Origin: a virus | Virus record (IMG/VR): IMGVR_UViG_3300028610_002211 | Coordinates: 32,001 to 96,000 of that record | Length of the DNA: 64,000 nucleotides | Reading direction: 5' to 3' (one strand) | Shown here: piece after piece, positions 19,013 to 55,217 of the stretch | Numbering within the stretch: the first letter of the stretch is position 1 | Layout of the letters: each line of letters opens with the position of its first letter | Translations under genes and position numbers: made by a program | Notes under the pieces: generated by a model | What the model was told of the DNA's origin: nothing | The model's input: only the letters and a program-made list of their open reading frames with translations | Database searches by the model: none

Positions 19013-19048
19013 TTGACATCTGAATTAAGAGGTGTTAAGCTTATAATA
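19013..19048 (+). promoter_or_regulatory. sigma70 cassette promoter
   Basis: TTGACA-17-TAAGCT with TG extension; +1 = A of ATG 19048. Confidence 0.8.
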
Positions 19049-19254
19049 TGAACAGCGCAACACAAAACACGGGAGCAAGCAAAATGAACACGGTAACACA
19101 CAGCGAAATCAAAAATGAAATTTGTGCCCAAACCCCCCGTTTTGTAGTGGCCAAAGTTGCCGGGCGCTTTGTTCAATTCACGATCCGCAGTAACGGCCAA
19201 TGGATCGAAAAAGGCAAAAAAATCGGGCTCGGGCTCGAATTGGTTTGGAGCTAA
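19048..19254 (+). CDS. cassette protein (second start 19084)
   Basis: leader MNSATQNTGASK-M. Confidence 0.65.
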   Translation: MNSATQNTGASKMNTVTHSEIKNEICAQTPRFVVAKVAGRFVQFTIRSNGQWIEKGKKIGLGLELVWS

Positions 19255-19648: not shown

Positions 19649-20150
19649 AAAAATAAATGTCACTTTTTTCTTGACTTCTGAATTAAGCGTGTTAAACTTA
19701 TAATATGAGCGCAACACAAAACACAGGGGACAAGGCAATGAAAAGTCAAATCGAGAAAAAAAGTCGCGAAATCAAAAGTCTTTTTGAGACCAGCACTGTT
19801 TCAATTACTATCGCACAAGGGAGTATTTATTTTTCGATTTGGGACAACAGAAAAGAAGATCGCGAAGAAATGGCAATCGTCAAAGCGAAAGCGGTTAAGT
19901 GGATTATGGAAAACGACGATCGCAAATGGTTGCATGCGAAATCTCGCGGTTATCGTGTTTGGTGGTGGGGCGGAAACCAAACACGCAATATGGGTTTGCG
20001 TTGTGGTATTAAAACCAAATTGACAGACGCTGAGCACCAAGCTGTTGTCGCTGGACCGGATGCGTGGCGCGCGATACAGGAAAAATAAATGTCACTTTTT
20101 TCTTGACTTCTGAATTAAGCGTGTTAAACTTATAATATGAGCGCAACACA
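19649..20150 (+). repeat. perfect 70-bp direct repeat (19649-19718 / 20081-20150), each copy a cassette promoter
   Basis: identical AAAAATAAATGTC..TTGACT-16-TAAACT..ATGAGCGCAACACA; offset 432. Confidence 0.9.
19705..20088 (+). CDS. cassette protein (second start 19738)
   Basis: leader MSATQNTGDKA-M. Confidence 0.7.
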   Translation: MSATQNTGDKAMKSQIEKKSREIKSLFETSTVSITIAQGSIYFSIWDNRKEDREEMAIVKAKAVKWIMENDDRKWLHAKSRGYRVWWWGGNQTRNMGLRCGIKTKLTDAEHQAVVAGPDAWRAIQEK

Positions 20151-20430
20151 CAAAGGAGCAAGCAAAATGTTTGGACAAAACAGAATTGAAATAGTCAAAG
20201 AGACCCGTGATGATGGAACCGGCGCTTTTGAACGTTTGACCGATTCAGCGTTTTACTCGGTTAATCCCGAGCGTTGGACTAATGAAGCCGGGCGCCGATC
20301 TTGTCAGTTGGTTCTTTACTTCGAGATCCCGAGCGGGACAAAAGTTCCTGTGTTGGTAGCCGAACAAGATGATAGCTTTGGCCGGGCGCAGCTGTGGGCG
20401 CATGTCGCCGAATGTACCGCGCTAAGGTAA
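20137..20430 (+). CDS. cassette protein (second start 20167)
   Basis: leader MSATHKGASK-M. Confidence 0.7.
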   Translation: MSATHKGASKMFGQNRIEIVKETRDDGTGAFERLTDSAFYSVNPERWTNEAGRRSCQLVLYFEIPSGTKVPVLVAEQDDSFGRAQLWAHVAECTALR

Positions 20431-23248: not shown

Positions 23249-23284
23249 TTGACATCTGAATTAAGGGGTGTTAAGTTTATAGTA
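23249..23284 (+). promoter_or_regulatory. sigma70 cassette promoter
   Basis: TTGACA-17-TAAGTT; +1 = A of ATG 23284. Confidence 0.8.
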
Positions 23285-23493
23285 TGAACAGCGCAACACA
23301 CAAAGGAGCCAAGACAATGAAAAGCGAAGAAATGATAGCCAAAATTGAAAGTGAAAAGAGGGAAGTTAATCGGCGCCTTAAGGATTACGATCTGGCGCAA
23401 ACTACACCAAATAATTTGACAATCAGGGTGATAAGCCGTTTAAAAGGCAAGTTGTCTGGATTAGAGTTTGCCTTAAAACTGTTGAAAAAATAA
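23284..23493 (+). CDS. cassette protein, GxLxGL.FAL family (second start 23317)
   Basis: leader MNSATHKGAKT-M; RLKGKLSGLEFALKLL. Confidence 0.7.
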   Translation: MNSATHKGAKTMKSEEMIAKIESEKREVNRRLKDYDLAQTTPNNLTIRVISRLKGKLSGLEFALKLLKK

Positions 23494-25268: not shown

Positions 25269-25303
25269 TTGACATCTGAATTAGCTGTGTTAAGTTTATA
25301 ATA
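25269..25303 (+). promoter_or_regulatory. sigma70 cassette promoter
   Basis: TTGACA-16-TAAGTT; +1 = A of ATG 25303. Confidence 0.75.
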
Positions 25304-25476
25304 TGAGCGCAACAATAAGGAGCAAGACAATGAACGTTAAAATGAAAAAAGGAGAAACAGGTTATTTCAAGGGTGACAAAATACAATTCACCGGAAAAGA
25401 AGAAGTTCTTTACGGTGGGCTTTTCGATGAGTTTGTTTATCTCGAAGGTTATAAAAAAGCAGCTAAAAAAGCATAA
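25303..25476 (+). CDS. 57-aa cassette protein (second start 25330; not in ORF track)
   Basis: leader MSATIRSKT-M; TAAGGAG SD; TAATG coupling to next gene. Confidence 0.65.
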   Translation: MSATIRSKTMNVKMKKGETGYFKGDKIQFTGKEEVLYGGLFDEFVYLEGYKKAAKKA

Positions 25477-25817
25477 TGCACAAAGGAGCAAGTAAAATGA
25501 ACACCACTAACAATAATAAAAATACTGTCGAAGAAAAAAGAACAACAATCGAGGTTTTCGACCCTAAAAAATTCGATCACAACCAAAGGTGGTTTCAACC
25601 GATCAACAATTTTGCTTTTCTTGGACAAGCTTCCGGTATGGCGCTCGCTCACGATCCGATTTATAGGGATAGTCTATGGGCCGAAACAGTACCGCACCCT
25701 AATTTTTTGCGCGATGTCGAGAGAAAATTTCCCGGTCATGTGTTGGTTTATGATGATATGGGTCATGGACGCGATTGGATTCTCTCGATCAAAGGTTCTA
25801 TTCCTTCGAACGAATAG
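25476..25817 (+). CDS. hypothetical protein (second start 25497)
   Basis: partial leader MHKGASK-M. Confidence 0.7.
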   Translation: MHKGASKMNTTNNNKNTVEEKRTTIEVFDPKKFDHNQRWFQPINNFAFLGQASGMALAHDPIYRDSLWAETVPHPNFLRDVERKFPGHVLVYDDMGHGRDWILSIKGSIPSNE

Positions 25818-25818
25818 C

Positions 25819-25924
25819 GTTCAACGCCCTTGTGCGCGCCCCTGTGGTAACTTTTGTTTGTCTCCTGTGTTGCGCTAACCATGGGGATTTGAGTCGAACA
25901 GGAGCGCGCACAAGGGTGTTGAAC
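25819..25924. repeat. 27-bp inverted repeat with 52-nt loop (candidate ncRNA)
   Basis: arms 25819-25845 / 25898-25924, 25/27 complementary. Confidence 0.85.
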
Positions 25925-25985
25925 CCGTTCAACAGCTTCAATGAACCTGCCAAAATAAACAGATCCTAAAGGATAATATCTAAAT

Positions 25986-26043: not shown

Positions 26044-26079
26044 TTGACATCTAAATTAGAATGATTAAGCTTTATAGTA
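26044..26079 (+). promoter_or_regulatory. sigma70 cassette promoter
   Basis: TTGACA-16-TAAGCT; ATG 26079 lies 8 nt after the -10. Confidence 0.75.
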
Positions 26080-26300
26080 TGAGCGCAACACAAAACACGG
26101 GAGAAAACAAAATGACAAAAATCGAAATGGCTCAGTATATTGTTGAGGTCTTGTATCAGTTGGACCACGTACCTGCCCGAGATCACATCCATGTCCAGCG
26201 AATAGCTCGCAGGCCGAAGGTTGCCTTGGAGAATTTGTACGAAAGAGCTTTCGTGGTCGAAGAAGAGCTGAAGGCGAAAAAAACCATAGCTAGCCTGTAA
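26079..26300 (+). CDS. cassette protein (second start 26112)
   Basis: leader MSATQNTGENK-M. Confidence 0.7.
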   Translation: MSATQNTGENKMTKIEMAQYIVEVLYQLDHVPARDHIHVQRIARRPKVALENLYERAFVVEEELKAKKTIASL

Positions 26301-36620: not shown

Positions 36621-38129
36621 ATGTTGTTATTAGACTCCACAACTTCGTTGGATCAAGGTAGGTCTGACGAGAGTTTACCAGTCGTTGGAAAAAAGCGTTT
36701 AAAGAGGGCTGAAAAATCGGAATTGATCGAGATTTATGAACAATCGATCACGACTGAAAACGCTTGGTTGAAAAAACAAATAGTTGATAATGATCGGATT
36801 GACTTACTTGCAACCGAGATTTTGGGATATGAAGTAAAACCTTTACATCTTGCTTTGTTACAATTTCAGTTTTTACATCCCGAAAATTTACAATTGGTAT
36901 ACAGAGGCAGCGGCAAAAGCACGATGTGTACCGTTACAAAAGCGATTCACTTGTTGTTGAAAAACTCAAATCTTAGAATCTTAATCGCTTCAAAAACTAC
37001 CACTAACGCAATGGCGTTTTTAAAAGAAATTAAAACCCATTTTGCACAAAATGAAAAACTGACTGAAGTTTTTGGCCCGTATTATGACCAAAAACTTACA
37101 ACAAAATGGGATGAAAAAGAGATCGAAGTTTTACCTAGAACTAAATTTACAAAAGAAGCTTCTGTAACGTGTGTTGGCGTTGATGGTACAATTGTTTCTA
37201 AACATTATGACGTGTTGATCTCCGACGACTTGGTTGACGAATCGAATTCACGAACCGATCATATGAGAAGAAAAACACAGACGTTTTATTATCAGACATT
37301 AGAACCAACTTTAGAGGCGCCCGATCCTTCAGTCCCTCATAGAGGCGAACACCATAAACAAGGGACACGTTTTCACTATGATGATCTTTATGGTCATCTT
37401 ATAGCAAACGAGCTTAAAAACCATCACCAAATTATTAAAGCTTTAAACGAAAAAGGCCAAAGTCCGTGGCCAGAAAAACACCCACCGGAGTGGTTTTTAG
37501 AAAAGCTTAAAAAATCCGGTTTGATAATTTTCGGGGCGCAATACCTTTGCGATACCGAAGCGATGAAAGGCAAGGTTTTTCAATATGATGATTGTCAAGT
37601 AATCGAAGACGAAGAAATACCGAAAGAATTACAAATTTATATGGGTATTGATTTGGCGATTGGCGAAAAAGAAGAACATGATAATTTTGTAATTGTGGTT
37701 ATTGGTATTGATACAAACTATAACTATTATATCTTGGATTTCTATGAAGGTAAAATCAGATTTAGCGTTCAAACGAAAAAAATCAGAAAGTATTATAAAA
37801 AATGGGATCCAATAAAAACACTTATTGAAACAAATGCCTATCAAGATGCGCAATACCAAAATTTAAAAGACGAAGATAAAACACTTAGGATAAAACCGAA
37901 AAAACAAACGAAAGACAAAATAACACGGGCTTGGAAACGATCGGCCGATTTCGACGATAAACGCGTATTTTTCAAGAAAACTGGGAAATCACACATTGCA
38001 GTTGAAAGACTTGTGCTTTTCCCAGATGCAAAGGGTTCAAGAGATTTTTTTGATGCATTAGATCTTGCATTTAAAGCGGCAAACACCAAAAAGAAAAGAC
38101 GCAGACCCAAAGAACCGAGTTTAATTTAA
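36621..38129 (+). CDS. terL: terminase large subunit
   Basis: RGSGKS Walker A, LISDD Walker B, GTRFH, GIDLA nuclease, D..DAL. Confidence 0.92.
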   Translation: MLLLDSTTSLDQGRSDESLPVVGKKRLKRAEKSELIEIYEQSITTENAWLKKQIVDNDRIDLLATEILGYEVKPLHLALLQFQFLHPENLQLVYRGSGKSTMCTVTKAIHLLLKNSNLRILIASKTTTNAMAFLKEIKTHFAQNEKLTEVFGPYYDQKLTTKWDEKEIEVLPRTKFTKEASVTCVGVDGTIVSKHYDVLISDDLVDESNSRTDHMRRKTQTFYYQTLEPTLEAPDPSVPHRGEHHKQGTRFHYDDLYGHLIANELKNHHQIIKALNEKGQSPWPEKHPPEWFLEKLKKSGLIIFGAQYLCDTEAMKGKVFQYDDCQVIEDEEIPKELQIYMGIDLAIGEKEEHDNFVIVVIGIDTNYNYYILDFYEGKIRFSVQTKKIRKYYKKWDPIKTLIETNAYQDAQYQNLKDEDKTLRIKPKKQTKDKITRAWKRSADFDDKRVFFKKTGKSHIAVERLVLFPDAKGSRDFFDALDLAFKAANTKKKRRRPKEPSLI

Positions 38130-38138
38130 GGTGAAAAA

Positions 38139-39941
38139 ATGGAAAAGAATACAACAAAGAAGACAGAAGAAACAAGCGATCGAACGGTTGATAGTAACGA
38201 AGTAAACAAAAGCGCATTAAGAGCAATTAGAGCTCGTGTTGTCGAAGTGAGAAAGTCGACCAATGATGTTAAAGATGGTAAATCGAAAAAAGCAGACGAT
38301 GATCCACTTTATCAATTGGGCGAAAGTGGCAGAATTCTGGAAATGCCTTTTGACGCGCTTAGTTTAACCTTGTTGCTTGAACATAGTGGCGAATTGTCTC
38401 AATGTATTGAGGCAATGGAGATCAATATTGAAAGTTTTGGCCACAGGTTTATTCCCAGAACGAAAAACAATCTTGATGTTAAATTACCCGATTCACTCAA
38501 AGAAGAAATGAAAAAAGAGCGCGTTCGTCTTGAAAACTTTTTTGCAAATTGCACGTTTGAGTCTTTTGTCAATTTTAGACGAAGGCGGAGAAAAGATCTT
38601 GAATCGACTGGAAATTGTTTTTTTGAAGTTGTGCGCGGCGCTTCTGGCGACATACAGAGTTTTGTACATATACCGGCTTATCAAGTTCGACTTGGTAGAC
38701 AAGATAAAGATTTAGTAAAAACTATAAGGCCAGCTTATCAATTGCAATTAGATGGTTCTGTTGAAATTGTGAAGTTGACAGAATGGAGAAGGTTTAGAAC
38801 ATATGTTCAATCGAGATTATCAAGGCGCCAGAATTTAGACATTATACCGGGCGATCGGATTCGATGGTTTAAAGAATTTGGTGATGAAAGGGTTTACGAG
38901 GCTGAAACCGGTCATCCACAAAGCGAAGTGGACGAAACAATTCCGTGGGAAAAACAAGCAAACGAAATGATCCATGTTGATTTATACTCGGCCAGAAGTC
39001 CGTATGGTTTACCGCGTTACATTGGAAATTTGCTTTCAATTTTTGGAGATCGAGCGGCCGAAGAAATCAACTATGTCACTTTCAAAAACAACAATATACC
39101 TTCGATGGTTATTTTATGCTCAAATGGACAATTGACGCAAGGTTCAGTTGAAAGAATCGAAAGTTTTGTTGAAAGCCAAGTTCAAGGATCTGATAACTAC
39201 AGCAAATTTTTGATCGTCGAAGCTGAGGGTGATTTAGAAGGTGAAGACGGGAATCAAATAAAACTCGAAATCAAACCGTTAACTGAAGATCAACATACAG
39301 ACGCGTTGTTTCAAACTTATTCGAAAAATAGCAAAGATAATGTTCGGCGCTCTTTCCGTTTACCTCCAATTTTGGTTGGTCATACTGCGGATTATAACAA
39401 AGCAACAGCGGATACAAGTAGACGGCTAGCAGATGAACAGATTTTTGCGCCCGAGCGCGACGAATTTGACACGTTGATGAACCGGCTGATTTTTCCAGTG
39501 TTGGGGATCCTTTATCACAAATACAAGTCAAATTCACCAAACACAACCGATAATGAACAGCTTGTTAAAATGCTTGCTACTTCAGAAAAGACGGGCGGTA
39601 TGACCCCGTTTATTGCACGGTTTATATTAGAAGGTATTTTGGGCCAAGATTTACCACCTTTCACGGAAAAATTCGATCAACATATGCCGTTTTCTTTGTT
39701 AATGGCCGAAGCTGTAAAAAACAAAGCCGATCCGACCGAACCCGGGCAACAAGTAACCGCGATCAAAAGCGACGGTACGGTTGACGGTGACGTTTTGATA
39801 ACGCTTTTAAAAAAGGTTTTGGGCCCGAAGGATCCGTTAATTGAGCATTTAACATCTCTTCAATCTGAAATTGAAAAACAGTGGTCCGCTGATTTAGATG
39901 AAGATCACGATCACGACGAAGAAGACGAAGACAACGAATAA
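38139..39941 (+). CDS. portal protein (PBSX-like)
   Basis: DLESTGN.F.EV.R, HIPA, YGLPRY, F.NNN.P, FRLPP.LVG, N.ATA; follows terL. Confidence 0.9.
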   Translation: MEKNTTKKTEETSDRTVDSNEVNKSALRAIRARVVEVRKSTNDVKDGKSKKADDDPLYQLGESGRILEMPFDALSLTLLLEHSGELSQCIEAMEINIESFGHRFIPRTKNNLDVKLPDSLKEEMKKERVRLENFFANCTFESFVNFRRRRRKDLESTGNCFFEVVRGASGDIQSFVHIPAYQVRLGRQDKDLVKTIRPAYQLQLDGSVEIVKLTEWRRFRTYVQSRLSRRQNLDIIPGDRIRWFKEFGDERVYEAETGHPQSEVDETIPWEKQANEMIHVDLYSARSPYGLPRYIGNLLSIFGDRAAEEINYVTFKNNNIPSMVILCSNGQLTQGSVERIESFVESQVQGSDNYSKFLIVEAEGDLEGEDGNQIKLEIKPLTEDQHTDALFQTYSKNSKDNVRRSFRLPPILVGHTADYNKATADTSRRLADEQIFAPERDEFDTLMNRLIFPVLGILYHKYKSNSPNTTDNEQLVKMLATSEKTGGMTPFIARFILEGILGQDLPPFTEKFDQHMPFSLLMAEAVKNKADPTEPGQQVTAIKSDGTVDGDVLITLLKKVLGPKDPLIEHLTSLQSEIEKQWSADLDEDHDHDEEDEDNE

Positions 39942-41811
39942 ATTGACGGCGCTTCAAACATATACGCGCTTGGTAAAAGTCGATTCTGTTATTGCCAAGG
40001 TCGCGAAAATTTCAGAAGTCACCCAAATTGGGCGCGGTGAAAAACGAACCCGTTCTTTTATGCAGAGCGCTTGGCAGAAAAGAGCCAAAGAAGCCACTGA
40101 AAAAGCTATTCAACTTGCCAAAAAATTAGAGAAACCTGAAAAAATTGCGGCGGCAATTGACGCAATAATGGAGCAATGGAAAACAGATGTTTTACCAGTA
40201 TTTATATCCGAGTTTTCGCTTGCCTATCGTTTGGGGCGTGAAGTCGGTTACAAAAAAGCAACAAGGCAGATCAAAGGTTCGCTTCGTTACGGATTGCCAA
40301 AAGAAACACCCGTTACAAAAGCAAAGGCGCCGGTTGAGTTATTACCATCCTTTGACATTATCGATCGAGAAAATTTAAAGGCGCTCACTAATCACCAAGT
40401 TTTTTGGATCGGCGATTTTTACAAAAAAGGCGTTTCCCAACAAATAGCGGCAACAACCAAAGATGTGATGGCAAGGTGGGGTGAAGGCGCTACAATTGCC
40501 GGGCGCCGGATGGGGCAGAAAATCAGTGAAAATTTTGCCCATGTTCGTTTACCAAGCGGTTTTGTGGGGACTCCAAAACAATATTTCAGCGGGTTGACAG
40601 CAAACGCTTTCACTGTGGGCCGTGTTCACGGTCAAATGCGTTCTTTTGCTGAGATAGGTATCAAGACTTATACAATCAGTAACCCGGTCGATAAGCGCAC
40701 CTGTAAACGTTGTGCTCACTTAAACGATAAACGCTTCACTACAAAACAAGGTGTTGACGCTATGCACGCGGAACTTTCGGCAAAGTCGAAAGCCGGTGTT
40801 AAAGCGGTTCACCCTTGGCTTTCGTTGGGTGAAATTCAAAAAATTTCACCAAAGCCAGGTTTTGTTGGGGGTGCGGCGGGCGTCAAAGATGCAAAGGCTT
40901 TGTCCGAAGCCGGGCAAGCTTTGCCGCCATTTCACTTTAAATGCCGTTGTACGGTCGATATAGCGATCGACTCGATGTCATACAGTAATCTAGTACCGTT
41001 AACACCACCGACCGCTAGGAAGCCTTCTAGACCCCTTGAGCTTAAACCACCAAAAGCGAGAATCGCAACATTGAGAGATCGGATCGGCCAACTATTGCGA
41101 ACTTCGATAATTCGCAAAACATCTTTTACCCATGTTGAAGGTGAAAAGTTTGCGTTTTTAGAAATGCAATCGATACAACCGGGGGGCAAAAAAGCAATAA
41201 CTGCTCTTTGGAAAACAGCGGGAACTGAAAAAGCCGAATCTTCGTTTTATCGTTTAGATCGAGAATTGGGTGGAAAAACAATTGTCCCGCCAACAATAGC
41301 CAGGGATCCCGGCTTGGGATCTGGTGTTGGTACACTTCAACATTTTGAAAAACGTTGGAAGGTTACCGATAAAATTACAGACGCCCAGAAACAAAGAATT
41401 CGTTTACTAGATTTTGTTTCTGGTAACAGCCAAAGAAGAAAAGGGAATATCTTAAAAACTGGCGCTGGTATAGCTGTTGTGAATAACGACGGTGGTTTTA
41501 AATCGGTAACTCCAAAAAAATATTACTACCCAACTTCGGATAAATTGAAAGATTTGAGCGCAACCGATGTAAAAAAATTGAAGAAAATCGGTTTGAAAAG
41601 AATTGCCGAAATCTTAGAACAAGAGGGCATTTCTAAAAAAGCCGCAAGATTAACACTTTTACGGGCGAAATTGGTAATCGATAAGCCCAAACTTTTAACC
41701 AAAAAGAAGACAAAAACCCTTTGGAATGACCTAGAAAACAACCCCAAAAAACACTTAAAGTCTAAAGATGTTAAGAAGATAGATACCATTTTAGATACAA
41801 TTTACAAGTAG
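39898..41811 (+). CDS. head morphogenesis protein (SPP1 gp7/Mu F) fused to a degenerate PI3K/PI4K/HipA-like kinase domain
   Basis: D.RTC..C..L and PPFH.KCRC; C-terminal E...Y.LD..LG..VP.T, LDF..GN.QR..GNIL, VNND.GF. Confidence 0.8.
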   Translation: MKITITTKKTKTTNKLTALQTYTRLVKVDSVIAKVAKISEVTQIGRGEKRTRSFMQSAWQKRAKEATEKAIQLAKKLEKPEKIAAAIDAIMEQWKTDVLPVFISEFSLAYRLGREVGYKKATRQIKGSLRYGLPKETPVTKAKAPVELLPSFDIIDRENLKALTNHQVFWIGDFYKKGVSQQIAATTKDVMARWGEGATIAGRRMGQKISENFAHVRLPSGFVGTPKQYFSGLTANAFTVGRVHGQMRSFAEIGIKTYTISNPVDKRTCKRCAHLNDKRFTTKQGVDAMHAELSAKSKAGVKAVHPWLSLGEIQKISPKPGFVGGAAGVKDAKALSEAGQALPPFHFKCRCTVDIAIDSMSYSNLVPLTPPTARKPSRPLELKPPKARIATLRDRIGQLLRTSIIRKTSFTHVEGEKFAFLEMQSIQPGGKKAITALWKTAGTEKAESSFYRLDRELGGKTIVPPTIARDPGLGSGVGTLQHFEKRWKVTDKITDAQKQRIRLLDFVSGNSQRRKGNILKTGAGIAVVNNDGGFKSVTPKKYYYPTSDKLKDLSATDVKKLKKIGLKRIAEILEQEGISKKAARLTLLRAKLVIDKPKLLTKKKTKTLWNDLENNPKKHLKSKDVKKIDTILDTIYK

Positions 41812-41900: not shown

Positions 41901-42425
41901 ATGCCACGTAGAGCGATGACAGCACAAAAATACGAACAATTAAAAGCTGAAAAACAGATCATTCCGGTTGAAAGTGATGAACCGAAAGAGCCGGTTGCAA
42001 TCGCCAAAAATACAGAAGAAGCGGTTTCAGTAATTAAGGCATATGTCAAACTTGTAAAGTTAGCAAAAGAAGAACAAAAAGTTACCGGCGTTGTTTTAGA
42101 GCCGAATGTTTTTGACACGCAAAAAACGACTATTAGTGATGAAGTAATCCGAAAAGCGGCACATGGCTTTTTAGCTGGCTTCAATATAACAACCAAACTT
42201 GGTGTCCAACATAAAGATTTCAAAAAACCGTTTGAACTTTGCGAATCATATATTGCGCCGATCGATTTTGCGTTAGGTGATAAAACGATCAAAAAAGGAT
42301 CATGGGTTGTAATCCTAAAAATTCTAAGCAAGAAAATTTGGGACAGGATTAAAAAGGGCGAAATCACCGGTTTTTCAATCGGCGGAAAAGCCAAAATCAA
42401 AAAACTCAAAAAAGAGGCTGCATAA
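41901..42425 (+). CDS. XkdF-like prohead serine protease
   Basis: GVVLEP..D, I.KAAH.F, QH, ESYIAP, KKGSW, IKKGEITGFSIGG. Confidence 0.88.
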   Translation: MPRRAMTAQKYEQLKAEKQIIPVESDEPKEPVAIAKNTEEAVSVIKAYVKLVKLAKEEQKVTGVVLEPNVFDTQKTTISDEVIRKAAHGFLAGFNITTKLGVQHKDFKKPFELCESYIAPIDFALGDKTIKKGSWVVILKILSKKIWDRIKKGEITGFSIGGKAKIKKLKKEAA

Positions 42426-42426
42426 A

Positions 42427-43338
42427 ATGACCGAAGAAGTGGCTTTAGAAAAGGCGGAAAGTGTTGGTGTTGAACATGAATACACCGATTTGGAAGTTAA
42501 CGAAATTTCAGTGGTAGATAGGCCAGCAAATCAAAAAGAATTTGCTGTAATCAAATGCGTTGGAAACAGCGCAACACAAAAAGGAGTGGAACCAATGGCC
42601 GATCAAGTAGCGAAATCTACAGAAGAGGCTGCTAATGTCGAAGTGGTTCCTGTCGAAGTGGCCAAGAACGATGATGACTCGGCCATGGAGCAGGCGCTTG
42701 AAAACCTCGACACTATTTCGAAATCGATTGCGGGGTTAGCCGCTCAAGTCGAAGACGAAGAAGGCGGCAAAACCGAAACCGAAACAGAGGCGGAAAAGGC
42801 CGCCAAAAAAGAAACACCGGCAACGATCTTTGCCAACGCGTTGAAGGCAACCGGCGTTAAAGGCGAAGCGCTCAAAACCGCGCTCAAAAAGTACGAAAAA
42901 GTTTGTGCTTGTGGTTCGGCGACGGTTCAAAAGACCGAAACCAAAACCGAAACCGAAGGCGCCGAAACCGAAACCGAAGGGGACAACGATTTCATGGGGA
43001 ATCTTGCGGCGGCGGTTACTAAAGCCAAGGTGTTGACCCCGAAACGGCTTGCGGCGTTAAAAGCGTTGCAAGAACAGTTGGCCAAGATGATCGGTGAAAT
43101 GGAAGGAATCCCTCATTCCAAATCACCGAAAACCAAGGTTCCGAAAAACGCAAGTTTCGGCGCAAGCGGTCTAAGCACGATCACAAAAAGCTTCGAAACC
43201 ATATCGACGGCGCTGAAAACGCTAACTGGTCGAATCGAACAGATCGAAAACACCCGTCAAGGATCGAAAAGCCTTGGCGAAAGCGGCACTGTAACAACAA
43301 AAAAGGCGGATAAAGATCTTTGGGACAACGTTCTGTAA
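42427..43338 (+). CDS. capsid scaffold protein (internal start at 42595)
   Basis: EISVVDRPAN N-terminal motif, acidic/coiled-coil body, located between protease and capsid genes. Confidence 0.75.
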   Translation: MTEEVALEKAESVGVEHEYTDLEVNEISVVDRPANQKEFAVIKCVGNSATQKGVEPMADQVAKSTEEAANVEVVPVEVAKNDDDSAMEQALENLDTISKSIAGLAAQVEDEEGGKTETETEAEKAAKKETPATIFANALKATGVKGEALKTALKKYEKVCACGSATVQKTETKTETEGAETETEGDNDFMGNLAAAVTKAKVLTPKRLAALKALQEQLAKMIGEMEGIPHSKSPKTKVPKNASFGASGLSTITKSFETISTALKTLTGRIEQIENTRQGSKSLGESGTVTTKKADKDLWDNVL

Positions 43339-43384
43339 AAGAATCGTCCTAGACACCTTTTAACGTAATAGGAGAAAACACAAA

Positions 43385-44593
43385 ATGGGCAATATCGTAA
43401 ATGAGGAATTAGTGCACGAAGAAGTGCAAAAAGCTATTACCGCCGCTGATGATCTCGCAACGGGTGGTAAACTCAACGCCGCGCAAAGCGATCGTTTCAT
43501 CGATTATGTGATCGATGAAACGGTTTTGAAACAAAACGCGCGGACCGTGCGATTCCGCAACGAAACGCTAAACATCGACAAAATCGGAATCGGCAGACGA
43601 GCGGCCGTTCCAAAGGTCGAAGCAAAGGATCCGGGTGTTCGACGCGGGATCACAACTTCGCAAGTTCCTTTGACCCCTTCAGAGGTGATGGTGCCAATTG
43701 AGATCTCGGATAATTTCCGGGAGTTGAACATCGAAGGCGACAACGTAACGGATACCATCATCCGTTTATTCGCCACCCAACTGGCCAACGATCTCGAAGA
43801 ACTCTATTTGATCGGTGATACGGTCGGTCCGGCAGTGCTCGAAGGTGACATTGTCGACAGCGGTTCAACAACGTTGTACATCAAAGATTCTTATCTGGCG
43901 TTGCAGAACGGTTGGCAAAAACTCGCAGACGGCGGACACCTCGTTGACGCACTCGGTTTGAACATTGGTGCAAGCGTGTTTTCGCAAGCGCTGCGAGCAA
44001 TGCCGACCAAGTTCCGCAGAAACAGAAAAAATCTACGCTTCTTCATGAGCCCGGATCTGGCTCAACTCTACGCTGAAAAGCTTTCGACCCGTGCGACCAA
44101 AGGCGGCGACGATGCAATGGCTGGAATGATTATCACACCTTTCGGTGTGCCGATCGTCGAAGTTCCGTTGTGGGATTTCCAACCAAAACAGGTCGAACAT
44201 GTCGCATTGCCGGGCACAACGGTTGTGGCGCTGAAATACAAGAACATCGTTGATGTTGTTGTGTTGCCTGAAACACTCGACGATACCCCCACAACGCCTT
44301 TCATCTCGGGAACTGATTACACCCTAGATGCGGCGGCCGGGACGATTGCGCGTGACGGTGGGGGTTCTATCGGCGACGGGGACACGGTCAAGGTGACCTA
44401 CGGGGCGAGCCCGCAAATAATGCTCACCCACATGAACAACTTCATTGTCGGGATCGGGCGTGATGTTCGGATCGAGAAAGACCGCGACATCTACAAAACG
44501 GTCGATCAATACGCGATCACGGCGAAAGTAGCGGTCCAAATCGAAGAAGTCGACGCGATCGTGAAGGTGTACAACATTGGCACGGGCGTTTAA
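43385..44593 (+). CDS. major capsid protein (HK97 fold, XkdG-like) with inserted Ig-like domain
   Basis: GG.LN..Q...FI, NIEG, A.DLE.L...GD, MP.KF, GVPIV.VP; SD AGGAG. Confidence 0.9.
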   Translation: MGNIVNEELVHEEVQKAITAADDLATGGKLNAAQSDRFIDYVIDETVLKQNARTVRFRNETLNIDKIGIGRRAAVPKVEAKDPGVRRGITTSQVPLTPSEVMVPIEISDNFRELNIEGDNVTDTIIRLFATQLANDLEELYLIGDTVGPAVLEGDIVDSGSTTLYIKDSYLALQNGWQKLADGGHLVDALGLNIGASVFSQALRAMPTKFRRNRKNLRFFMSPDLAQLYAEKLSTRATKGGDDAMAGMIITPFGVPIVEVPLWDFQPKQVEHVALPGTTVVALKYKNIVDVVVLPETLDDTPTTPFISGTDYTLDAAAGTIARDGGGSIGDGDTVKVTYGASPQIMLTHMNNFIVGIGRDVRIEKDRDIYKTVDQYAITAKVAVQIEEVDAIVKVYNIGTGV

Positions 44594-54809: not shown

Positions 54810-55217
54810 ATGGTAATTCCAAATTTACAACACCCGGTTCCAATTGACGTTGTTTCACTTGATTTAGCAAACACAATTCAAGACGACAAACATAGAGAGG
54901 CAGTTCAACAAACGACAACAACCACGACATTAGGTGTGCCTGGACAAGTCAAATGGTATGCCGAAGAAATGGAAATTGACGCGGGCGGGCGCAAAGTCAA
55001 GGCAACCGGTTATGTGTTGTTTCGTTATCTCGATTTAACAGCAAGAAGCGTAACGTTAAAATTCAATAGTCGGTTTACAAAAATCGGGAATATAACTGGT
55101 TTAGTCTATGTCGTTAATTTGGCACCAATAGGTCATTATTCCGATCAAGGCGGGGCGACAATGGTTAAAGCGTTTTTTAACGATCGACAACCGGCGGCGG
55201 GCGGATTTGATCTTTAA
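54810..55217 (+). CDS. head closure/stopper protein
   Basis: size, position after adaptor, beta-rich. Confidence 0.6.
   Translation: MVIPNLQHPVPIDVVSLDLANTIQDDKHREAVQQTTTTTTLGVPGQVKWYAEEMEIDAGGRKVKATGYVLFRYLDLTARSVTLKFNSRFTKIGNITGLVYVVNLAPIGHYSDQGGATMVKAFFNDRQPAAGGFDL

Follow-up and report, generated by a model that had tools for sequence, protein, structure and literature searches.

A nested scaffold start and a lineage-specific copy of an early leader in an uncultured phage group

Related systems and the head-assembly region

Translational operators of the T4 RegA type are common to many early mRNAs. In the head genes of Mu and Mu-like phages, the start of the scaffold lies within the protease gene and in its frame, eight bases from an SD (PMC4378225); for the comparable overlap of C and Nu3 in phage lambda, the reference list of PMC8508860 gives Shaw and Murialdo (1980). 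The PeSLs of T4-type phages are described, in the parts of PMC2839356 and PMC4122927 that concern us here, as repeated early cassettes, each combining an AT-rich stretch and a strong sigma70-like promoter with an SD and a start codon, and the same parts of PMC2839356 report that PeSL copies drive recombination and modular shuffling in these phages.

The window analysed here is the whole 64,000-nucleotide stretch that covers bases 32001–96000 of a 104,305-bp IMG/VR phage record (41% GC). The genome of this phage is referred to as G000 and the six complete relative genomes of the same group as G001–G006. A nucleotide search of the phage collection with this phage gave no match, the best matches of its capsid protein are ∼32% identical and, judged by sequence, no cultured phage is close to it. 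The head-assembly genes and the site of interest are as follows.

36621–38129: terminase (Pfam Terminase_6C)
38139–39941: portal (Pfam Phage_portal)
39898–41811: MuF-like protein (weak Phage_Mu_F match, under the cut-off)
41901–42425, + strand: ORF of an XkdF-type prohead protease (PF14550, E 7e-30; phrog_3017 positions 27–160)
42427–43338, + strand: long scaffold ORF, 303 aa (C-terminus aligns to phrog_3017 positions 317–400)
42565–42581, + strand: 17-nt copy of the early leader, AACAGCGCAACACAAAA
42568–42576, + strand: invariant core AGCGCAACA within this copy
42580–42597, + strand: internal translation-initiation region, AAAGGAG (GGAG at 42583–42586), 8-nt spacer and ATG at 42595–42597
42595–43338, + strand: predicted short scaffold isoform, 247 aa, from the internal start
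43385–44593: major capsid protein (phrog_1623, E 2e-76)

The scaffold gene thus sits between the protease and major capsid genes. The family phrog_3017 consists of fused protease–scaffold proteins; here the two are separate genes, with 1 nt between the end of one ORF and the start of the other. The PF14550 catalytic domain lies wholly within the upstream ORF, and protease and scaffold are separate genes in all of the relatives. A programmed frameshift joining the two (CAAAAAAG at 42407–42414, +1 offset) was considered and rejected: the ORFs of relatives stand at +1, at +2 or apart with an SD of their own, and this varying offset shows a true gene split without a frameshift. No fused, longer homologue of the first 60 residues turned up in the length band 532–2000 aa, which is weak evidence. 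Residues 1–45 of the long form carry the segment EISVVDRPANQKEFAVIK, and its EISVVDRPAN...K stretch weakly matches the C-terminal part of Peptidase_S78 (E values of 0.039 and 0.13 for two independent sequences, below threshold); these first 45 residues look like the final strand of a prohead protease. Both here (41901–42594) and in L008–L032, long forms begin with a conserved (R/Q)RF..L.V.E(V/I)S.VD.PAN..EF.V.K segment. At the other end of the scaffold (43324–43338 and its homologues) there is a conserved W-x-G-V-(L/I) ending, in which W299 is invariant in 28 sequences.

The internal start of the scaffold gene

The scaffold has six close homologues (66–85% identity) and many distant ones (23–37%), all of ∼265–360 aa. 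We surveyed the SD in 19 distinct homologues with DNA, which span 23–70% protein identity and a GC content of 30–66%. All 19 have GGAG or GAGG 5–10 nt before the homologous in-frame ATG, at a distance of exactly 8 nt in 13 of them; the same motif is present at 11% of other codon positions (nominal P ∼1e-18, with the 19 sequences not fully independent of one another). The methionine at the internal start, M57, is nearly invariant among the homologues. The residues encoded at the SD differ (QKGVEP, QEEGD, QEDVD, KEVGT, TEDAT, AQEEE, TEDEP, KEKTT, QEDPS, LEDSD and others) and, where the SD is GGAGG (in the cases shown), its first G comes from the third position of the codon before it (caG, acG, ctG, aaG, atG). 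As the SD is kept despite these different residues, and through a third-base G, the constraint acts on the RNA and not on the protein. On this evidence, the nested scaffold start is ancestral to the whole phage group, and a conserved internal start at 42595 within ORF 42427–43338, nested in the manner of Mu and lambda C/Nu3, is strongly supported. The first-pass annotation, made from the letters of the window, had proposed a scaffold start at this in-frame, SD-led ATG, and the survey bears it out.

The comparison of DNA with a close relative rests on L032 (70% identity), a single metagenome contig of 2.5 kb; the nearest relatives (79–85%) were compared by protein, and a scan of genome contigs for the DNA of close relatives returned nothing. 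In the N-terminal extension of the long form, up to the leader copy, this phage and L032 differ by eight synonymous-only codon changes versus six that are mostly conservative, a synonymous-heavy pattern that indicates that the extension is translated. Its sequence is strongly conserved in homologues. Two isoforms would be expected from a translated extension combined with a conserved internal SD, and we infer that both are made. The 247-aa form is probably the bulk scaffold, while the long form would tether or complete the protease; the arrangement may be a two-chain protease or a protease tether. The AlphaFold2 model of the 303-aa protein has a mean pLDDT of 50, too low a confidence for fold searches, with helices at residues 85–276 and no structure for residues 1–84. 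Unstructured residues 1–84 would fit a linker at the internal start, in so far as this weak model can be followed.

The likeness to Mu I/Z and lambda C/Nu3 is that a longer head-assembly ORF contains an in-frame ATG with its own SD, and that the scaffold is predicted to share its C-terminus with the longer product. The 8-nt distance from SD to start is also that reported for Mu and Pseudomonas Mu-like phages (PMC4378225). Unlike in those two systems, the longer product here has no prohead protease domain, PF14550 being in a separate upstream gene; it keeps instead a segment of ∼45 residues weakly similar to the protease C-terminus.

Early cassettes and the copied leader

The leader that is repeated at the scaffold site belongs to a set of seven early promoter–leader cassettes.

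2562–2631, + strand: cassette c2629
19013–19086, + strand: cassette c19084, the copy cited in the first-pass annotation
19671–19740, + strand: cassette c19738
20103–20169, + strand: cassette c20167
23249–23319, + strand: cassette c23317, the best in-register match to the scaffold site (24/30)
25269–25332, + strand: cassette c25330, a short leader variant
26044–26114, + strand: cassette c26112

All seven share one layout. The promoter part consists of a T-rich stretch, TTGAC(A/T), CTGAATTA, a TG-extended −10 hexamer of the TAAGCT type placed 16–17 nt after the −35, and TATAAT or TATAGT; this is followed by an ATG, an optional AAC or AGC, the core AGCGCAACA, one of the leader types and the SD-led ATG. 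There are two main leader types, CAAAACACGGGAG and CACAAAGGAG, besides a third, short variant in c25330. Across the seven cassettes the core does not vary and the adjoining promoter and spacer bases do, which suggests that the core has a function there. Three promoter-spacer types (c19084/c23317, c19738/c20167 and c2629/c26112) each occur with both leader types. Since every combination is found (a four-gamete pattern), recombination has taken place among the cassette copies, and the invariant core sits between the variable segments that were exchanged. The leaders fold weakly (MFE of −1 to −7 kcal/mol).

The promoters of G002 and G004 are visibly homologous to the cassettes (TTTTTTCTTGACTTC...), with the −10 hexamer 17 nt downstream, and this homology supports both the TAAGCT-type hexamer as the −10 and a position of the upstream ATG near +1. 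These two genomes have standardised early start regions of their own: in G002 (L157–L162) AAAGGAGAACGG(A/G)(C/A)ATG is present in nine copies on early genes, alongside seven near-identical promoters (TTTTTTCTTGACTTCTGG...TATAAT), and in G004 (L163–L168) a region beginning AGGAGAACCGGC, in full AGGAGAACCGGCCATG, is present in 11 copies; some of the copies are promoter-less. The upstream ATG, which is lacking in G002 and G004, directly follows TATAAT or TATAGT in each of the seven cassettes (at 2596, 19048, 19705, 20137, 23284, 25303 and 26079). It lies 33, 36, 33, 30, 33, 27 and 33 nt, respectively, from the SD-led ATG, in frame and with no intervening stop. Such paired ATGs suggest dual initiation at the cassettes, leaderless as well as SD-led.

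The SD half of the leader is the generic strong start region of this phage. As an example, the start region of the major capsid gene (43363–43387) reads AGGAGAAAACACAAAATG and nearly equals the SD-to-start part of c2629 and c26112 (AGGAGAAAACAAAATG); the genes at 1533 and 8140 have start regions of a similar type. One preferred strong start region seems to be used across the genes of the phage.

With the PeSLs, as the parts of PMC2839356 and PMC4122927 cited above describe them, the cassettes have in common their multiple copies, a sigma70-like promoter with a T/A-rich upstream stretch, the SD and start of a small early gene, and modules reshuffled by recombination between copies, seen here as the four-gamete pattern. 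Unlike the T4-type phages that carry PeSLs in those descriptions, this phage belongs to a different group; its genome is 104 kb and its protease of the XkdF type. Each of its cassettes has an upstream in-frame ATG and a transcribed core that does not vary, and a partial copy lies inside a late structural gene, which those descriptions do not mention for PeSLs. A stem-loop terminator also belongs to the PeSL type; the one large hairpin noted here is at 25819–25924. Scans of IMG/VR for the leader and for the promoter box gave single matches without cassette context (for the leader, among the matches listed), and an Rfam scan of 18000–44000 at E values up to 1 gave no match.

It had been noted from the letters alone that the scaffold gene repeats 17 nt of the leader at 19048 exactly, in the same reading frame and with no promoter attached. 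The match is indeed perfect: 42565–42581 equals 19051–19067 at 17 of 17 bases. Neither is a sigma70-like promoter found on the + strand between 41829 and 42595; compared with the cassettes, the scaffold copy comprises the leader and SD part only. The reading N-S-A-T-Q-K-G was likewise correct, with the leader copy (42565 − 42427 = 138) and the ATG at 42595 both in frame with ORF 42427–43338. As separate evidence the shared frame falls away, because the distance from motif to ATG is 30 nt in both places and forces it. The protein with GNSATQ is present on three contigs, so that an assembly artefact is unlikely.

When up to three mismatches are allowed, the 17-nt pattern has seven matches, all on the + strand, versus 0.5 expected, and none of 100 shuffles reaches seven. 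The 9-mer AGCGCAACA occurs eight times in forward orientation in the whole genome (seven promoter-linked copies and the scaffold site) and once reversed, where 0.35 and 0.21 copies are expected, respectively. Anchored at the ATG and without gaps, the 30 nt before 42595 match the cassettes at 23317, 2629 and 20167 at 24, 22 and 20 positions, so that the whole leader geometry is reproduced in register; the 1991 candidate starts of the 104-kb genome score 8.2 ± 2.8 on average, with 18 as the next best value. A chance resemblance in an A/C-rich region would gain from the fact that the L032-type sequence, taken as ancestral, agrees with the leader at 12 of 17 positions even without the patch. Such an accident is nevertheless extremely improbable in view of the 24/30 match and of the derived state, which is the leader core exactly and in register, with a chance of ∼5e-4 over all ∼90–150 SD-led starts.

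The reversed copy of the core belongs to a second promoter-less ectopic copy of the leader.

25819–25924, + strand: hairpin with a reverse-complement leader copy in its loop (loop 25850–25882, ATGGTTAGCGCAACACAGGAGACAAACAAAAGT)

The hairpin is GC-rich and ∼20 bp long (MFE of −66.7 kcal/mol for 25800–25940); it follows the ORF at 25476–25817, with no T-run after it. With the early leaders the loop is predicted to form duplexes of −27 to −35 kcal/mol, and with the scaffold site one of −30 kcal/mol, which is about the top 1% of genome windows. The hairpin could be an anti-leader RNA or another recombination relic. Antisense copies of their own start regions, sought in G002 and G004 at up to two mismatches in 17 nt, were not found.

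Origin of the leader copy

The leader core is confined to this lineage. At the position of GNSATQ, the six closest homologues carry DSDTEQ, NSDTEQ, ENDEEQ, ESDTE or EDDTQKE; the KGVEP-M that follows is common to five of the six, and the sixth has EGVEP-M. The core, which encodes SAT, is missing at the scaffold site of every relative as compared, nor is it a conserved trait of the distant scaffolds. At the DNA level L032 reads GAAAACGACGAAGAA then CAAAAAGGAGTGGAACCAATG, and this phage reads GGAAACAGCGCAACA then the same 21 bases; the L032-type bases at the position of the core are GACGAAGAA. Within this patch six of 15 bases differ, versus two of 44 upstream and none of 33 downstream. The stretch 42580–42597, with the SD, spacer and ATG, is identical in L032 and is therefore ancestral, which leaves the core as the only derived part. 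Divergence of this size (five mismatches in a 13-nt window; six of 15 by eye) is ordinary for a gene that is 72% identical overall, and a single multi-base event is thus deduced from the exact identity to the leader and not from clustering alone.

One explanation offered by the first-pass annotation was that SAT(Q/H)KG is a procapsid-interaction or cleavage signal that tagged early proteins mimic. As weighed here, it would be a procapsid-targeting or protease-cleavage tag, carried by the long scaffold form and by early proteins made from the upstream ATG. The frame shared by the upstream and SD-led ATGs in all seven cassettes would suit such a tag, as would SAT-like tripeptides near the internal start in three distant relatives. 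Recurrence there is marginal, however: at least eight of the nine core bases are found near the internal start in two of 17 relatives, versus 2.5% per control window. Scaffolds of 66–85% identity do without the peptide, the segment being hypervariable, and the cassette peptides diverge right after SAT (QNTGASK, HKGASK, IRSKT). The pattern of variation goes against the peptide as well: AGC GCA ACA shows no synonymous variation in nine copies, so that the pattern is one of nucleotides and not of protein. The segment is, moreover, modelled as a low-confidence coil (AlphaFold2) and lies upstream of the conserved internal start, from which the main form would begin. We consider a peptide signal very unlikely.

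The tripeptides themselves are as follows. The short scaffold isoform of G006 begins ATGAGCGCAACA (MSAT; L026:5584–5600, also L028/G006); G005 has GACAGCGCAAC nine bases after the scaffold internal start (L029 near 10100), where L015 has a SAT tripeptide. The recurrence of AGCGCAAC in these distant relatives (9/9 in L026 and 8/9 in L029, with 8/9 reached by 2.5% of control windows) was taken as coincidence.

The other explanation offered was that the motif is an RNA enhancer or regulatory site common to early and late genes. The scaffold start region of each genome, G000–G006, was set against all candidate starts of all seven. The G000 scaffold region matches its own starts at up to 19 of 25 positions, with a top-ten mean of 16.2 versus 12.4–13.3 against the other genomes. 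In G001–G006 the scaffold region is no closer to its own starts than to those of others (maxima of 13–16 of 25 on and off the diagonal), and the idea that a scaffold site co-varies with the early leader of its own phage was accordingly rejected for these six complete genomes. The scaffold sites of G002 and G004 share with their own early starts the SD and a few peptide-forced bases only. With the core absent from close relatives and no resemblance to the own leader in six genomes, a regulatory site common to early and late genes did not hold up as a general property. The annotation had tied its proposals to the presence of the motif in homologous scaffolds and to initiation at 42595; the former gives way, as the motif is absent from the close homologous scaffolds.

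In G001 an early leader (L153, ∼54972–55016 in the oriented genome coordinate) reads ATGATCAACGAGCGCAACACGGAG, 7 nt and ATG, and resembles the G000 leader; this G001 leader contains AGCGCAACACGGAG, and the gene behind it has no homology to the G000 cassette genes. The sequence GAGCGCAAC, and in G001 the 13-mer CAACGAGCGCAAC, equal the universal 16S rRNA segment around position 1100 (GCAACGAGCGCAACCC).

A functional capture confined to this lineage was weighed separately. Here the core would act in cis on the RNA, recognised by a factor of the phage or its host (a protein or the anti-leader RNA of 25850–25882), and its copy at the scaffold would tie synthesis of the short isoform to the early translational programme. 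The invariance of the core amid variable flanks, the exact register of the scaffold copy with SD and ATG and the predicted pairing of the inverted loop copy with the leaders and scaffold site are what such an element would lead one to expect. Set against these are the absence of the motif from every relative's scaffold site, the lack of co-variation in the six complete genomes, the fact that G002 and G004 have conserved early starts yet no antisense copy, the lack of any matching Rfam family and the biological awkwardness of one site repressing both early genes and the late scaffold. We regard this capture as unlikely. Its narrower form, in which AGCGCAACA(C) would be an RNA operator for a phage-encoded factor (a protein or the 25850–25882 loop RNA), recruited to the scaffold start so that the early-gene switch sets the ratio of short to long form, is rather improbable. 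Like operators of the RegA type, the motif is short and overlaps several early-gene start regions; unlike them, it is not conserved in relatives, has one copy in a late gene and comes with no candidate repressor.

Convergent selection is a further possibility that we rate as doubtful. An unstructured, A/C-rich enhancer before the SD would have been favoured, and point mutations would have driven the scaffold site to the early-leader optimum, in keeping with the weak folding of the leaders and with the CAAAGGAGAAAACAAAATG-like start regions shared by several highly expressed genes. Composition alone would not, however, require 9/9 identity to the core, which holds a GCGC tetramer, and the sequence of the L032 type is likewise rich in purines and without structure. 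Opening energies, as computed, are inconsistent: for this phage versus the L032-type site they are 4.8 versus 7.6, 10.0 versus 6.0 and 2.9 versus 2.5 kcal/mol, the sign changing with the length of the context.

The reading that we favour, at somewhat better than an even chance, is a short templated recombination patch that placed the leader core onto a conserved and already similar internal start. It is suggested by the reticulate pattern of the cassettes, by the second promoter-less, inverted copy and by the absence of the patch from all of the relatives. In the ancestral state, group-wide, the SD-led internal ATG in the long ORF would have given the short scaffold form. In this lineage only, 9–13 nt just before the SD would then have given way to the invariant core of the early leader that the phage has in many copies, through short-tract ectopic recombination (gene conversion or template switching). 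The donor would have been an AAC-type cassette such as c19084 or c23317, and the recipient a start region that resembled the leader beforehand, agreeing with it at 12 of 17 bases and in both SD and 8-nt spacing. On either side of the patch the microhomology is very short (AAC to the left and CA..AAAGGAG to the right), which makes classical homologous conversion unlikely, and a template switch must be assumed. The patch would be tolerated because it lies in a hypervariable, probably disordered linker of the long form, upstream of the start of the short form, and its effect on translation is probably small. Both the recombination mechanism and the neutrality of the patch are inferences from sequence comparison. 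Against neutrality, a functional element that lands at a start site may not be neutral, given the invariance of the core.

The internal start is a known kind of feature in a new phage group. It provides clear evidence, at the level of sequence, that a large uncultured group of ∼105-kb phages would make its scaffold from a nested internal start, the signal for which is kept at the nucleotide level in homologues with DNA that span 23–70% protein identity and helps to annotate these genomes. The conservation of the nested start suggests that head assembly depends on two isoforms, one of them with a protease-strand-like tether. The leader patch is most likely a tolerated recombination scar specific to this lineage and, as such, would show in a clear natural case how a repeated regulatory cassette can leave its templated footprint in an essential late gene. 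Should the patch prove functional, a late structural gene would have become part of an early translational regulon, which is rare; if the operator reading is true, head assembly would have been rewired to the early translational programme in this lineage.
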